Assembly (NCBI RefSeq): GCF_006345805.1
Contig: NC_043004.1
Location: 3,100,001-3,164,000 of the forward strand
DNA from: Octopus sinensis
Lineage: Eukaryota
Direction: 5' to 3'
Length of the DNA: 64,000 bases
The stretch's first letter is position 1; every line of letters begins with the position of its first letter. The notes under the pieces were generated by a model. It did not search any database, was not told the origin of the DNA, and saw only the letters and a list, made by a program, of their open reading frames with translations. The position numbers and the translations under genes are program-made. This document shows, piece by piece, positions 14,836 to 59,429 of this stretch.

Positions 14836-15752
14836 ACTTTTCATTTACTCCCCCTTCACAAACACATAAAATGCAGCCACCTCTTACATTTTTACAGTCC
14901 ATTTCGCCAACCCCGACCGACACACCTACGATACACCACTGAACCCATCGCCCTACACACCAACACGTTCGAACAGTATACAAAGAAACCTACACAGACT
15001 CACCTATTTCCTTCTTCACACACTCCAGCTGCCACACTTCCATTTTGCTCCCGTAGGATATTGACACTTATAGCAACCAGTATAGAATACACCTACACTT
15101 CCCATCACTTCCTACAATCTTGTCACGTCTATTTCATCACCATGCCCTTCCCGTATGACTCACAAAATAGCCTCACAGAAACGCACACACGTATAAACAG
15201 AAAACAAGCGCATACGCACATATATACACCCACAAATACACAGTATACATACACACAAAACGTCATACACACACACGTGACGATATGGCGGAAGCAGATT
15301 TACCGTAAGCCTAATCCTTAAGCTGAACCAGGGTATCATAGTGTGATATAGCTGGATATTCGAAGTATTCGATCGATCTATCCGATCGGGATTCACTCAG
15401 TTTCTATCTTCCCGATTTCAGTCATAAGCCTTCGGTGAATCAGAGCCGAGCATAAAGACATTTATCAAAGGTGAGAGGAAATTGGTTCGAATCGAGAAGC
15501 TTGTGTAAAGGAAGCGGGTTTCTTAATTATTCAACTTTTCTGCGTCCACGTTCGTGCGTGCGCGTGCACACACACGTGTGTGTGTGTGTGTGTGTGCGTG
15601 TGTGTGTGTGTGTGTATGAGTGTAGTCGTATTCCCTTTTCCTACGGTTTTCCAAAATGCCCGGAGAATGAATTGCCATACTATGGAAGAATTTGTACCTC
15701 ATAGAGAACAGTCGTCGCCAGTTCATTTATGATTTATTTATTATATACTATC

Positions 15753-16364
15753 ACATAAGGGGGATCAGCCATCTGAATGTGGCTAGGGTCAGGGCGGGGT
15801 GGTGGGGGTGTTACTGATGCATTTAGCCCCAGGCGAACATCAACGTCACCAGAAGAGCTGACACCATCTCGGTGTCCTTGCCAGCCTGCAAAGGGAGATC
15901 AGCCTCCCCGAAGATACGGATATTACATACGGACCGGTTTCGAGGTTATTGCCTCTTGTCAACGTATGGTAAGCACCGCTCTTCTTTGAGGGACTCCCTC
16001 TACAGGCTGGATATATAGATTTTCACAGTAACCACAGTCACTGGCGTAGAAAATCCGTTCGAAAACAATAATAAATCTCTGAGCGAGATATAAACAGTAA
16101 CTGCTCTATAACATAAGGGGGATCAGCCATCTGAATGTGGCTGTAGTATCCGTATCTTCGGGGAGGCTGATCTCCCTTTGCAGGCTGGCAAGGACACCGA
16201 GATGGTATCAGCTCTTCTGGTGACGTTGATGTTCGCCTGGGGCTAAATGCATCAGTAACACCCCCACCACCCCGCCCTGACCCTAGCCACATTCAGATGG
16301 CTGATCCCCCTTATGTTATAGAGCAGTTACTGTTTATATCTCGCTCAGAGATTTATTATTGTTT
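15753..16364. mobile_element. Retrozyme/Penelope-pLTR-like element: 358-bp unit plus inverted partial copy, flanked by a TSD
   Basis: 15753-15927 is revcomp of 16142-16316 (2 mismatches seen); 16063-16142 is revcomp of 16285-16364; direct repeat at 15754 and 16112; TTTATTATATACT at 15737 and 16362. Confidence 0.85.
15926..15968 (-). ncRNA. Minimal type I hammerhead ribozyme, U3:A8 variant
   Basis: CATACG TTGACAA GAGG caataa CCTC GAAA CCGG TC^CGTATG; perfect stems I and II, palindromic stem III ACCGGT, GUC site. Confidence 0.8.
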
Positions 16365-35880: not shown

Positions 35881-36559
35881 GATGGTCATGAATCTTTATT
35901 TTTGTTCCGGGATGTGTGACGCTAGTAATATAATGTTGGGTTTGTTGGAGTTTTGAACGTCTGAATATCTGAAGTGTATTTAATTTTGAATTTCAATGTC
36001 AATCCAAGGGAGGTTTTTTAATGTTATTCCTCTTCTCCGTGCAACAACCTATCAAACTGCGTTCAAGATTTCACTATAAGCTACATCGAAATAGACGTTG
36101 GCGATATTGAATGCCGGGAAAAAAACTCTGCTGTTTAATAATTACTACGCCGAGTAGTAATTATCGAACATAATTGACATTAGTTCGGAGTTGTAGGAAA
36201 TGCAAATATATATAATCCCGTAGGATTATGCGTCTTAGATATACTTCCTAAGAAACTTATCATCGTATTGTGTGGCCCATAGAGGAACGACCGATTATGC
36301 ATAAATAAAAGCATTGATGACTAGATCATAGACAAATTAAGGAGGGACATTATCCAGACTTTTCGGTGATGAGGCACCGATAGTCACTAACCTAACTATT
36401 TTTGGATTCTAGATGTTTCGCTAGATTTAACGACAAACCTACAAAACTGTTTAGAAAACTAAATCAAATGTTCTCTTACACGTGCGTTGACAATGCAAAG
36501 TGTTTAAGAATCTCATCTACAATATAATCATAACAATGTTTAATGCTTTCTTGAATATT

Positions 36560-37152
36560 AGTTCAGTTCTATATTTGAGAGATGAAGAATTATGTACATT
36601 ATTTACATTATTTACATTTGACGAATATTTGTCCTCATCTTGTTTGTTGTTAACACAACGTTTCGGCTGATATACCCTCCAGCCTACATCAGGTGTCCAG
36701 GAGGAATTTTGAACCTGGGTTCTCATTCCTAAGGTATATTTTCAATGGCTATTATTATTATTTTACTCTTTTACTCTTTTACTCTTTTACATGTTTCAGT
36801 CATTTGACTGCGGCCATGCTGGAGCACCGCCTTTAGTCGAGCAAATCGACCCCGGGACTTATTCTTTGTAAGCCCAGTACTTATTCTATCGGTCCTTTTT
36901 GCCGAACCGCTGAGTGACGTGGACGTAAACACACCAGCATCGGTTGTCAAGCAATGCTAGGGGGGACAAACACATATACACAAACACATACATATATATA
37001 TATACATATATACGACAGGCTTCTTTCAGTTTCCGTCAACCAAATCCACTCACAAGGCAGAAGACACTTGCCCAAGGTGCCACGCAGTGGGACTGAACCC
37101 GGAATCATATGGTTGGTTAGCAAGCTACTTACCACACAGCCACTCCTACGCC

Positions 37153-37210
<58 letters not shown>

Positions 37211-37245
37211 CATTATTATTATCATCATCATCATCATCATCATCA

Positions 37246-37318
<73 letters not shown>

Positions 37319-37397
37319 AGTCACTCCCTGGAATCGAACTCGGAATTTTGTGGTTAGTAGCCTGCGCTGTTAAGCACTACGCTATATGGCCGTGGAC
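36560..37397 (-). mobile_element. Family G: tRNA-headed SINE with (AAT)n spacer and internal hammerhead (copy 1)
   Basis: Minus-strand head CATATAGCGTAGTGCTTAACAGCGC...GAGTTCGATTCC (37390-37320); (AAT)n; HHR 36697-36652 GACAC CTGATGT A GGCTG..CAGCC GAAA CGTT GTGTT. Confidence 0.75.
36763..37152 (-). mobile_element. Family A SINE nested in the (AAT)n tract of family G
   Basis: Full-length family A copy with (ATT)n on both sides. Confidence 0.9.
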
Positions 37398-37411
37398 AGG
37401 GACCTGAATGG

Positions 37412-37452
<41 letters not shown>

Positions 37453-37458
37453 GTTATG

Positions 37459-37490
<32 letters not shown>

Positions 37491-37509
37491 GAGGAGGAGG
37501 AGGATAATG

Positions 37510-37567
<58 letters not shown>

Positions 37568-37742
37568 TAATAATAATAATAATAATAATAATGCCATCGG
37601 GAAAATACCTCAGGAATGAGAACCCAGGTTCAACATTTCCCCAAGACACCTGATGAATGCTGGAGGGTATATCAGCTGAAAAGTTGTTTTAACAACAAAC
37701 AAGATGAGAACAAATATCCGTCAAGTGTAAATAATGTAAATG
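37398..37742 (+). mobile_element. Family G copy 2, 5'-truncated, inverted against the head of copy 1
   Basis: Starts at GACCTGAAT (end of the tRNA head), then (GAT/AAT)n, then HHR at 37645-37690 with intact CTGATGA. Confidence 0.75.
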
Positions 37743-38704
37743 ACGTATATGAAATTAGTTGATTAGGCGAATCACAAGTAGAACAAAGCCTTAATAACTT
37801 GTTCAATGAAAGATGATCACCTGAACATGCCTACTCGCACCGATAAATTATGTTTCACTTTAATATATGATTAAAACTCCATTTTCATTCAGTGGATAAC
37901 TTAAAGTAACAAAAGATTTCCTAAATCCAAAGAACACACGATTCCCGCTTGAGTAGAGATACAGAAAAAAACCTATTAACAGAAAAAAAAACGTTTAAAT
38001 GAGCCATTGGTGCATCATGAATGTGAGAACCATTACTTTGGTAAAAATTAAAATCCGATGTATAAAGGCACATACTTATAATTCGTGCAGGATACCTATA
38101 ATATTCCAACTTCAGAAACACTGCAAGGGCTGATAATTTATGCCGAAACGCATAAACTTAATATAGGTATGATGGAAGGAGTATTCAAATAAAGATTGCG
38201 TTGTGATACGTCTTCGTTTAAACTGATAAATACGAAGTCTACAGCAAGAAGTTAAAGAAGTGCGACTTTGGACTACAGCCTTTATAAAGAAAACATCTTG
38301 GAAGGGCCGTGTTCCATCAAACTGAAGGAAAAACGCTTGATATATGCACAGCAGACAAGAAGAGAATCCTGAAAGAACGTTTCTTAACAAGACCTCTGTT
38401 TAAATACGAGATCAAAAGAAGTACAAATATCCACAGATATTCACTTTCATCTTTACCCCCATAATTCCTCTACAGCATCTTTCTTTCATACCCCACCCAT
38501 CTCCCACTTCCATTCTTGACCGAGATTAAATTCTCTTAATCACATTAGTATTGATAAGCCACAATAATAGCGAAATGTCGATCACTTCGGGGTCTGGTTG
38601 TCGGACCTGGTCTTGAACACTCGTTCGTTGTTCTCTAACGCTCAGCGTTGTGTAGGGAGATACACATAGACACACACACACACACACACACCACACACAC
38701 ACAC

Positions 38705-42586: not shown

Positions 42587-43676
42587 TGAGTGAGAGCAGC
42601 GCATGCCATTAACGTGACACTGGATAAGATATACGAAACCCAGTATACCCATCACGACTACCCGTCCGATAAAGGTACACCAGGCACATGCATCACAACC
42701 ATATGTGCGCGACATGGTGATCTCATATCAATATAAACAGCCAATGATCTTGCAGGTGGGGTCCAGTTAGAATTTTCTTCAGGTCGAGTAGCTCATCCCG
42801 CTACAAAATTTTATTCTACGAGAGTTCCGGACCCCATCAATGAACTCATTTGCATAATCGAATCAGAGCTCACCTCGATCGTGTTGTCAAATTAACAAAC
42901 ACATCAAGTAAACTCAAGACTAAGAAAGGTGTTGTAAGTCGACCGATCGCCAAGTTACGCCTGATTTTAGGAAGAGACAAGTAATTAGATAGATTTGCTT
43001 CTATATCTATTATCGGATTGTGTTAGGGCCCCATATGGTAAAGATGTGGATGAGGAAAATGTGGGTAGAGGGTGATGTGCTAGCAACCCTCTCTTCTTAC
43101 TGTCTTACAAAGTAAACTACAACACAAATAATTACGCGGAGGCAGCCATGGTTGGAACAAGAACAACAAGCATTCTTAAAAGAGAAAAGAAGCATGGTCA
43201 TTCCTTACCCAAGTGACCTAATCTTATTGCCCATCACTTGTTATGCGCTCATAAATTAATTTGATAGTTGAGCTCTGATTGGCTGTATGCAAATGAGTTC
43301 ATAACTGGGGTCTGGAACTCTCGTGGGAAAAAAAATTTCGCATCCTGCTCAAAAGATCTCTGAATAAGGATTGTTGAACGAAACACCCATGTTTCCAAAT
43401 GTGAATTATCCAAAGCCGAAAGAATTCCTCTCAATACATGGCTATGATGCTCCCCCTCAACTTCTGCTCATGATCAGAGATGCACATATCGTCAGCTACT
43501 AAGGGACATACCCAACTGGTTATGGTCAAACAAATCACAAGCAAATCTATGGCATTGAGCAGAATATTTGCTGTAGACCATCTTTTATACCAAGACAAAA
43601 CAATGTACATGATAGCACTTCAAATCAGTTAAGATCAGAAACTATGAGGGTCACTGCCTGGTACTGCATCAGGGTC
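42587..43676 (-). mobile_element. Family E ~610-bp non-coding element between (ATT)n tracts, split by a MULE-like insertion
   Basis: Colinear with 58111-58717, with the same two ends (TGAGTGAGAG ... GGTACTGCATCAGGG); strand inferred from the (TAA)n tail. Confidence 0.85.
42803..43340. mobile_element. Non-autonomous MULE/Mutator-like DNA transposon
   Basis: ~75-bp imperfect TIRs; 9-bp TSD CATCCCGCT (42794) and CATCCTGCT (43341); the empty site is visible in the E copy at ~58321. Confidence 0.75.
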
Positions 43677-44654: not shown

Positions 44655-45652
44655 GGGGCGGTGAGCTGGCACAATCGTTAGCGCATCAGGCAAAATACTT
44701 AGTAGTATATCTATTTCTTTATTACCCACAAGGGGCTAAAAACACAAGGGACAAACAAGGACATACATAGGTATTAAGTCGATTACATCGACCCCAGTGC
44801 GTAACTGGTACTTAATTTATCGACCCCGAAAGGATGAAAGGCAAAGTCGACCTCGACGGAATTTGAACTCACAACGTAACGGCAGATGAAATACCGCTAG
44901 GCATTTGGACCGGCGTGTTAACGTTTCTGCCAGGTCACCGTCTTTAGTAGTATATCATGATATACTTAGTAGTATATCATTTATCTTTACGTTCTGAGTT
45001 CAAATTCTGCTGAGGTCGACTATAACTTTCATTTTTGCGGCGTCGATGAAATAAGTTCCATTCGAGTACTGGGAAAGATGTAATCGACTTGCTCGTTCAC
45101 TCAAGTTTCAGGCCTTCAGCCTTTTGTAGAAGGGATTATCATTATTATTAAGGCGGCGAAACGCGATGAGCTGGCAGACTCGTTGGGATGAAACGCTTCG
45201 CGGTATTTCGTCCGTCATTACGTTCTGAGTTCAAATTCCGCCGAGGTCGACTTTGCCTATCACCCTTTCGGGGTTGATAAATTAAGTACCAGTTACGCAC
45301 TAGGGTCGATGTAATCAACTTAATCCGTCTGTCTGTCCTTGTTCGTCCTCTCTGTGTTTAACCCCTTGTAACTAGTAAAGAAATAAGTATTTCGCCCCTC
45401 GCTACGTTCCGACTTCAAATACCACCGAGGTCGTTTTTGCCTTTAATCCTTTCGGGGTCGATGAATTAAGTACCTATTGAATACTAGGATTGATGTAATT
45501 GACTCATCCCCACCTCCCGCAAGCTGCCCTTCTGGCAAAAATTTGAAATAATCATTACGGCGGCCAGCTGGCGGAATCGTTAACACGCCGGACAAAATCC
45601 TTAGCGATATTCTAGTATTATGTTTTGTGTTCAAATTCTGCCGAGGTCGACT
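44655..45652. mobile_element. Cluster of five nested or tandem family C SINE copies
   Basis: Repeated family C heads and bodies; inverted copy 44712-44943 flanked by TTAGTAGTATATC. Confidence 0.85.
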
Positions 45653-57958: not shown

Positions 57959-58110
57959 TATTTCCATTTGACGGATATTTGCCCTCATCTTGTTTCTTGT
58001 TAACACAACGTTTCGACTGATATACCCTCCAGCCTTCATTAGGCGTCTTGGAGAAATTTCGAACCTGAGTTCTCATTCGATGTTTTTATTATTATTATTA
58101 TTATTATTAT

Positions 58111-58817
<707 letters not shown>

Positions 58818-58845
58818 ATTATTATTAATATTATTATTATTATTT

Positions 58846-59233
58846 AGTGATTCTGGGGTGAAATATACGAAACCCAGTATAACCATCATGACTACCCATT
58901 TGATGTGGGTACACCAGGCATATACATCACAACCATATGTGCGCGACATAGTGGTCTCATAAACAGAGCACGACTTTGCAGGTGGGGCTTAGTTAGAATT
59001 TTCCTCGGGTCGAGAAGCCCATCTCGCTCAAAAGGTCCTTGAGGATGTCGAACGAAATAATGTTTCCAAAGGTGAATTATCCAAACCCTAAAGAATTCCT
59101 CCGAACACATGACTATGATGCTCACCTACTACTTCTGTTCGTGGTCAGAGATGCACATATCGTCAGCCACTAAGGGACTTGCTCAACTGGTTAAGATCAA
59201 GCAACTGACAAGCAAATCTGTGGTATTGAGCAG
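58846..59233 (-). mobile_element. Family E element, diverged and truncated
   Basis: Homology to 58111-58717; (ATT)n flanks. Confidence 0.8.
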
Positions 59234-59429
59234 TATTATTATTATTATTATTTTTATTGTTGTTGTTGTTGTTGTTGTTATTGTTGTTGTTGTTGTTGTT
59301 TTTATTATTATTATTCAGGTCACTGCCTGGAATCTTGGTGTTAGTAGACTACGCCATATGCCCGTGGGCATATGTAAATAATGCAAATAATGTACATAAT
59401 TCCTCATCTCTTAAATATAGAGCTGCAGA

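Follow-up and report, generated by a model that had tools for sequence, protein, structure and literature searches.

A protein-coding Penelope-like retrotransposon of Octopus sinensis with a tRNA-like head, probably transcribed by RNA polymerase III and generating its own SINE-like copies

We examined a hammerhead-bearing repeat in 64,000 nucleotides of Octopus sinensis DNA (contig NC_043004.1, positions 3,100,001 to 3,164,000; hereafter the window), which an earlier note on this DNA had described as a short interspersed element (SINE) with a tRNA-like head. The repeat is almost certainly a terminal piece of a Penelope-type retrotransposon, and that retrotransposon is probably a protein-coding element that RNA polymerase III (Pol III) transcribed and that generated its own SINE-like copies. 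Judged from its sequence, the tRNA-like segment of the terminal repeat likely acted as a Pol III promoter. The fuller proposal, in which an autonomous retrotransposon changed over to an internal Pol III promoter of tRNA type, lost the Pol III terminators from 2.6 kb of coding sequence and made SINE-shaped copies from its own transcript, we rate as evenly balanced. What is new here is a Penelope-like element whose pseudo-long terminal repeat (pseudo-LTR) has a tRNA-derived head.

The unit reads, in order, head (73 nt, containing the A and B boxes), (AAT)n, ATG, hammerhead, tail, the rest of one open reading frame (ORF) and stop. The ORF encodes a reverse transcriptase (RT) and then a GIY-YIG endonuclease, the next head begins ~30 nt past the stop, and the whole unit measures ~2.6 kb. 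We identified the segment from head to tail as the pseudo-LTR of an autonomous element because the head comes after the endonuclease and the ORF has the body as its N-terminus. In the flanks of copies picked by position, a GIY-YIG-type frame ended ~30 nt before the head at five loci (L016, L068, L069, L078 and L079). A search with the DNA of the GIY-YIG end returned 2,985 candidates, and the head followed directly in 28 of the 30 loci examined; it also followed the endonuclease in 25/30 loci picked with a distant protein, a set that overlaps the DNA-picked 30. At the other junction, the body lay directly upstream of the ORF in 24/30 loci picked by the N-terminus (four being one duplicated insertion), an exact 20-mer running from tail to ORF had 103 matches, and one copy (L162) offered 320 stop-free codons through hammerhead and tail into the N-terminal domain. 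A separate, non-autonomous SINE, as in the earlier note, is not supported in that form, the whole unit being the pseudo-LTR, and the AATAATGTA repeats that it took for a terminal tail are coding sequence (N-N-V repeats) at the start of the ORF. The same near-full-length insertion with the same flank was seen on four contigs (L129-L132), as a duplication or as separate haplotypes.

The RT domain matched PF00078 and RT motifs lay upstream of the endonuclease; the endonuclease piece itself had no Pfam match. An intact relative of 847 aa (P0001) is 43-61% identical to four pieces of the element, is colinear with it over N-terminus, RT and C-terminus, and likewise has an N-terminus encoded across the hammerhead; its homologues carry PF00078 and some carry PF01541. 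Every long copy examined was broken by stops or frameshifts. Partial tandems (L141, L143 and L409) gave a pseudo-LTR with hammerhead and ORF start inside, and no CxxC-type linker between thumb and endonuclease was visible. A Pfam GIY-YIG search of the same genome led to other Penelope-like families, with the body in 0/30 loci, and the parent was found via the flanks. No sister families turned up in the same genome among the 30 best loci, and the viral contigs searched held no relative. Another Penelope-like family of this genome (L038, L047, L051, L052 and L053) has open frames of up to 883 codons and, 3' of the endonuclease, a hammerhead variant whose core has U in position 3 and A in position 8. 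Many tail-to-ORF copies (L395-L424) contained just 33-432 nt of ORF before a jump to a new head or body, a pattern that suggests template jumps between short RNAs.

An exact hammerhead 23-mer had 5,220 matches in the same 2.72-Gb genome and its reversed control had 0, so the motif is not there by chance. The same 23-mer was exact in 15/70 arms picked by other means, and the two counts together give ~24,000 hammerhead-bearing arms genome-wide. Outside CpG sites, arms departed from the majority base of each column by 4.7%. Further counts were made on 144 non-redundant loci (5/149 removed as duplicates) and on 88 copies picked by their heads (2/90 removed). The linkage of head and hammerhead on which the earlier note relied was borne out, with a same-strand body within 620 nt in 74/88 head-picked loci. 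Short copies outnumbered those linked to the untranslated region (UTR) by ~3:1 (65 vs 23), and exact 20-mers had 5,213 matches for the A box and 926 for the UTR just upstream. Across 258 columns, no diagnostic base divided short from ORF-linked copies (four columns at p<0.02, none surviving 258 tests). Contigs of sequencing runs labelled with three other species covered the whole unit; contigs of one presumed-RNA run and three other runs covered 30/30 bins, a coverage uninformative on starts, strand or level.

Inverted partners were common. They accompanied 15/30 position-picked hammerhead loci, and among the 144 non-redundant loci 66 had an inverted body upstream, 64 had none and 14 were without a same-strand body within 620 nt. 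These loci were single or inverted, short direct tandems being a minority found among tail-to-ORF copies only. Nearly all untruncated pairs combined one long and one short end (58 of 61; 3 had two short ends and 0 two long), with the ~35-nt tail borne by the long end and so on one end only. Exact target duplications of at least 8 bp flanked 35/61 pairs vs 6% in shuffled flanks, and of at least 10 bp 27/61 vs 1%; duplications of the family measured 10-15 bp. The arm extending further 5' was the long-end arm in 22 pairs and the short-end arm in 23 (equal in 13). We therefore rejected a simple snap-back of one leading complementary DNA (cDNA) from the long-tailed arm, in which the same arm would always be longer. 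Derived non-CpG variants were common to both arms 23 times vs ~9 expected, a sharing that could also come from gene conversion. The pairs fit two cDNAs, one per target strand, for which the two borders of the tail would have been the priming points, whether on a single RNA or on sibling RNAs. In anole PAc the protein cuts and extends both target strands, the hammerhead contains the start of the ORF, and two internal RT start sites flank the tail (PMC11167929). One long plus one short end agrees with these two internal priming sites of the lizard element, and the strictness of that rule, with no preferred leading arm, supports priming on both target strands and not snap-back.

The head aligned gap-free to tRNA-Arg, tRNA-Thr and tRNA-Ala genes of the same genome, with a mean local score of 52 for tRNA-Arg(TCT), the best of six isotypes sampled, vs 27 for shuffles. 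It keeps the A and B boxes; by inspection, the acceptor stem pairs at ~2/7 positions and the T stem at 3/5, and ARAGORN called no tRNA on the window. While 23 of the 88 head-picked copies ran on into the endonuclease, 65 stopped at -9 to +4 of tRNA +1, 28 of which had no inverted partner. In this zone, the stop rate was 0.079 per nt vs 0.0024 in the endonuclease region upstream. Some copies (L140, L142 and L156) started at the head and continued into the ORF, and tandem junctions resumed at -4 to -6 (L411-L413). As a separate observation, locus L303 (493-3006) holds seven tRNA-Cys genes within 2.5 kb.

Pol III terminates at runs of four or more T (T4+). Seven long natural copies (1.8-2.4 kb) held 0, 2, 0, 1, 0, 0 and 1 such runs, and five control Penelope-like ORFs of equal T content held 9-13. 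After exclusion of 11/78 metagenomic relatives with fewer than 1,200 matched nt, 65 of the remaining 67 had T4+ in the ORF. Among the 21 relatives with a located hammerhead, 17 had T4+ between ORF end and tail and 0 had an A-plus-B box pair between ORF and hammerhead. ARAGORN found nothing in 37 of 78 metagenomic loci scanned; a tRNA match near L337 and an A/B pair near L341 were discounted as lying outside those relatives' units. A codon shuffle over 660 nt only was not significant (P 0.34), non-canonical T-rich terminator motifs showed no significant depletion, and the absence of G4 was dropped as an uninformative signal, the controls also being without G4.

All three window hammerheads are damaged, copy 1 at A9, copy 2 at position 15.2 (stem III) and copy 3 at G5. 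The consensus that the earlier note drew from them is intact as a majority, but no single copy in the window matches it. Genome-wide, core and stem III were intact in 27/78 unselected arms, stems I and II fold, and the parts of a minimal hammerhead are all present (CUGANGA and GAAA core, stems I and II, palindromic stem III and NUH site). In 21 relatives the same layout recurred with different stem II sequences. Rfam found neither a hammerhead nor a tRNA at gathering score in the window or at loose E-values (10 loci, L090). Compared by sequence, the ribozyme itself is no different from the minimal type I hammerheads described for animal Penelope-like elements (PMC4209133): like them it has a short stem I, an extra base between 9 and 10.1, no stem III loop and a palindromic ACGU for dimer pairing, and it occurs as many solo motifs and as opposite-strand pairs 100-700 bp apart. 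The anole PAc hammerhead is reported to cleave only with protein and to be dispensable for insertion in vitro (PMC11167929); the octopus motif is probably an inherited one, dimer- or protein-dependent and unneeded for insertion.

Put together as a mechanism, Pol III would start ~6 nt before tRNA +1 and, meeting no terminator, would continue past the ORF as far as the next head and tail. As in PAc, the element protein would nick the target on both strands and would prime reverse transcription internally, at one site on either side of the tail. Priming at the first tail would yield a copy of just ~300 nt back to the RNA 5' end, which is a SINE-shaped insert, and priming at the second would yield 5'-truncated or full ORF copies. 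Two cDNAs could join at their 3' ends by microhomology, or by a small palindrome at the RNA 5' end, to make an inverted pair. Because one RNA would give both copy types, no separate SINE master is needed, which matches the absence of diagnostic bases. The protein could also come from read-through by RNA polymerase II (Pol II). Use of Pol III, already suggested in the earlier note, is plausible on this footing.

Several observations weigh against Pol III transcription of the whole element. Stops inside the head are frequent (24/45 hammerhead-picked arms that reach its 3' end), so the 5' boundary is not razor-sharp. The five control ORFs represent two families with ~2x the phenylalanine content. 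Shuffles gave P 0.007-0.083 for T runs when synonymous (seven longest copies) and 0.02-0.35 when dinucleotide-preserving (six copies), and since the copies share one ancestor, the scarcity of T runs counts as one ancestral observation. An unrelated metagenomic family (L360, 2501-4406; L392, 2501-4623) has a T4-free ORF without a tRNA head; the UTR of this family is T-rich. The (AAT)n linker has a median of 58 nt in short and 22 nt in ORF-linked copies (p=0.0003), a difference that one Pol III transcript accounts for only if source copies differ. A two-copy fold did not give an active hammerhead dimer. Translation of an uncapped Pol III RNA is the weak link, and the open-access literature yielded no precedent for a translated 2.6-kb Pol III RNA. 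Cap-independent translation of the R2 kind is conceivable. According to one report, self-cleaving ribozymes in viral UTRs can drive translation that needs no cap (PMC13725137), but here the first in-frame ATG lies upstream of the hammerhead cut site. Moreover, 5' palindromes of the pseudo-LTR and inverted solo pseudo-LTRs are described as ordinary in Penelope elements with TATA-type promoters (PMC3846280), so the pile-up of 5' ends needs no Pol III.

These points feed directly into an alternative that we consider rather unlikely, namely an ordinary Pol II-transcribed Penelope-like element in which the tRNA/SINE head is a captured passenger, the short copies are plain ends with 5' truncations, formed by a stop or a snap-back at the palindrome, and TTTT is missing by chance. 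Palindromes of the required sort, and inverted solo pseudo-LTRs, are known (PMC3846280, PMC8557442), a T4-free ORF does occur in 1 unrelated family among 67 loci, the P value for T runs is just 0.01-0.08 for most long copies, and RT stops are raised across the whole head. A passenger head leaves it unexplained, however, that the upper limit of the stop zone (~-7 to -9) lies as far from an intact A box as a tRNA leader would reach, and does so in the 28 unpaired copies too. T4 is missing from UTR, head and linker too, whereas 17/21 relatives have T4+ between ORF end and tail, and by eye the interval from stop codon to ATG holds no TATA-like stretch, while several relatives show one before the hammerhead. 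An amended form of the earlier model would confine the head to promoting short Pol III RNAs, with solo pseudo-LTRs as SINE masters mobilised in trans and the full element left to Pol II. The ~3:1 excess of short copies (head-picked) and their longer linkers speak for it, as do the non-autonomous Penelope derivatives documented elsewhere (bioRxiv 10.64898/2026.07.22.740005, PMC8557442). We nevertheless find it improbable, given 258 columns without a base dividing the two copy classes, a T4-free ORF that it does not explain, and a PAc template reported to need ORF sequence beyond the tail (PMC11167929), which solo copies do not have.

The two remaining alternatives fare worse. The tRNA-like segment sits exactly at the monomer boundary and might be an RNA-processing signal at which a longer Pol II transcript would be divided by RNase P into RNAs of unit length; but 5' ends reach -7, not +1, and the poorly paired acceptor and T stems beside preserved A and B boxes, with no tRNA called by ARAGORN or Rfam, make this very improbable. 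A conventional SINE that borrowed a LINE (long interspersed element) 3' tail would account for a tRNA-like head on a short body and for the target duplications. Its probability is close to nil: the 3' part belongs to a Penelope-like ORF, as its N-terminus, there are two fixed 3' ends and inverted pairs, and the linkage counts of head to endonuclease and of body to ORF refute it. The earlier note was right in preferring Penelope-like to LINE machinery, as the ORF N-terminus, the inverted pairs and the one-sided tail indicate; the tail matches no LINE 3' end, being the start of a Penelope-like ORF.

Anole PAc (PMC11167929) and Adineta Pen2 of rotifers (PMC3846280), canonical endonuclease-bearing elements of the Penelope/Poseidon type, are described with one ORF for RT plus GIY-YIG at the C-terminus, an ORF start overlapping hammerhead and a 30-40-nt tail, a tail on one end only, an inverted 5'-truncated partner, partial tandems, a palindrome at the 5' end of the pseudo-LTR, and duplications of close to 10 bp at the target, all of which recur in the octopus. 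Where they have a TATA/initiator-like promoter, the octopus pseudo-LTR opens with a tRNA-like segment of 73 nt that contains A and B boxes; its sense strand is nearly without TTTT, and its short end pieces far outnumber long copies. Animal non-LTR retrozymes (bioRxiv 10.64898/2026.07.22.740005) are also short hammerhead repeats related to Penelope pseudo-LTRs, but they are defined as head-to-tail tandems, whereas the window family is mostly single or inverted and tRNA-headed. The TRIMs (terminal-repeat retrotransposons in miniature) Helenus, Ajax and Cassandra (PMC10886601) share with it a Pol III promoter derived from a small RNA inside the terminal repeat, which is putative here; they are short, non-coding LTR elements, unlike a Penelope-type element that encodes its own RT. 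The tRNA-derived SINEs, including octopus OR1, OR2 and OK, resemble our short copies in a head with A and B boxes, a length of <400 nt and high copy number (OR1 and OR2 are cited as CORE-SINEs in PMC4758252 and PMC4824008), and are set apart, by description, from a family whose body is a coding stretch of the parent element. The earlier note had drawn a comparison with Schistosoma Sm-alpha repeats; the hammerhead is of the minimal Penelope type and not of the Sm-alpha context. Sm-alpha repeats reportedly carry Pol III boxes. They are likewise short and hold a type I hammerhead in a SINE-like setting (PMC8490949); in the octopus, unlike there, a parent coding element is identified, the unit is its pseudo-LTR, and copies are dispersed inverted pairs. 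The open-access literature, which was the scope of our search and was judged by titles and abstract openings, yielded no tRNA-headed Penelope element, Penelope-mobilised SINE or Pol III-driven RT-coding element; the family may be deposited in Repbase, Dfam or SINEBase under a Penelope or SINE label, or appear in supplements to papers on cephalopod repeats.

Pol III promoters are a mark of non-coding passengers such as SINEs and TRIMs. If the Pol III reading is true, an RT gene can live on a Pol III transcript, raising the question of how that RNA is translated, and SINEs can be born without a separate partner. Should Pol III play no part, the family would still offer many natural cases on which to test how Penelope elements integrate, and some of this genome's annotated SINE repeats are termini of such elements.

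In the window itself, every part that the earlier note listed is present where it placed it: the head with A and B boxes, (AAT)n, the hammerhead, the inverted pair and the palindrome of copy 3. Copies 1 and 2 are the two back-to-back arms of a single insertion (36564-37749) surrounded by an 11-12-bp target duplication with one indel. The body of arm 1 is sequence that continues into the ORF in long copies elsewhere; on the minus strand, its head has +1 at 37391, the A box at 37384-37374 and the B box at 37341-37330. Arm 2 is the short end and stops ~30 nt before the long end. The third copy spans 57959-59425. Features of both insertions are collected in Table 1.

Table 1. Positions of the Penelope-like insertions in the window and of their parts
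Feature	Positions	Strand	Remarks
Left target-site duplication	36552..36563	+	matches 37750-37760, one indel
Arm 1 body: ORF N-terminus with hammerhead, long (tail-bearing) end, 184 nt	36564..36747	-	92% vs natural body positions 1-182
Minimal type I hammerhead motif, arm 1, core A9 changed	36652..36697	-	sequence; fold forms stems I and II
Unrelated SINE splitting arm 1 (AAT)n linker, not part of element	36761..37153	-	>10 other window copies
Arm 1 (AAT)n/(GAT)n linker	37154..37318	-	sequence
tRNA-like head, arm 1, ~6 nt leader	37321..37397	-	gap-free alignment to three same-genome tRNA genes
Arm 2: last 10 nt of head, expanded microsatellite, body	37397..37749	+	body positions 7-154, 92%
Minimal hammerhead motif, arm 2	37645..37690	+	core at 37650; stem III palindrome broken
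Right target-site duplication	37750..37760	+	pairs with 36552-36563
Body of copy 3 (read 58078->57959), short end, its hammerhead motif at 58047->58002 with core G5 altered	57959..58095	-	
Two copies of ~600-nt repeat inside copy 3 (AAT)n linker, not element	58111..59236	-	
Copy 3 tRNA-like head, internal deletion	59316..59370	-	head read from 59363 downward
Palindromic junction between copy 3 arms	59354..59373		sequence; same junction type recurs at other loci
Copy 3 second arm: few head bases joined to long tail end	59364..59425	+	body positions 126-182, 91%

The unrelated SINE that splits the arm 1 linker is abundant and tRNA-headed, and one of its copies abuts copy 3. Two long inverted repeats of the window are unrelated to the family (15748-16321, 180 nt, 98%; 44707-45390, 200 nt, 85%). 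The ~600-nt repeat inside copy 3 (58111-58716 and 58846-59236) recurs in the window at 43341-43674 and 42587-42807 and at ten further loci (L015, L021, L072, L083, L087, L146, L212, L221, L227 and L258). It occupies (AAT)n tracts, often in the linker of the Penelope-like element, and sometimes stands 3' of the 3' end of a LINE-like sequence, which we take to be of Dong/R4 type. Near its 5' end, it has ~12 nt in common with the 3' end of the tRNA-like head.
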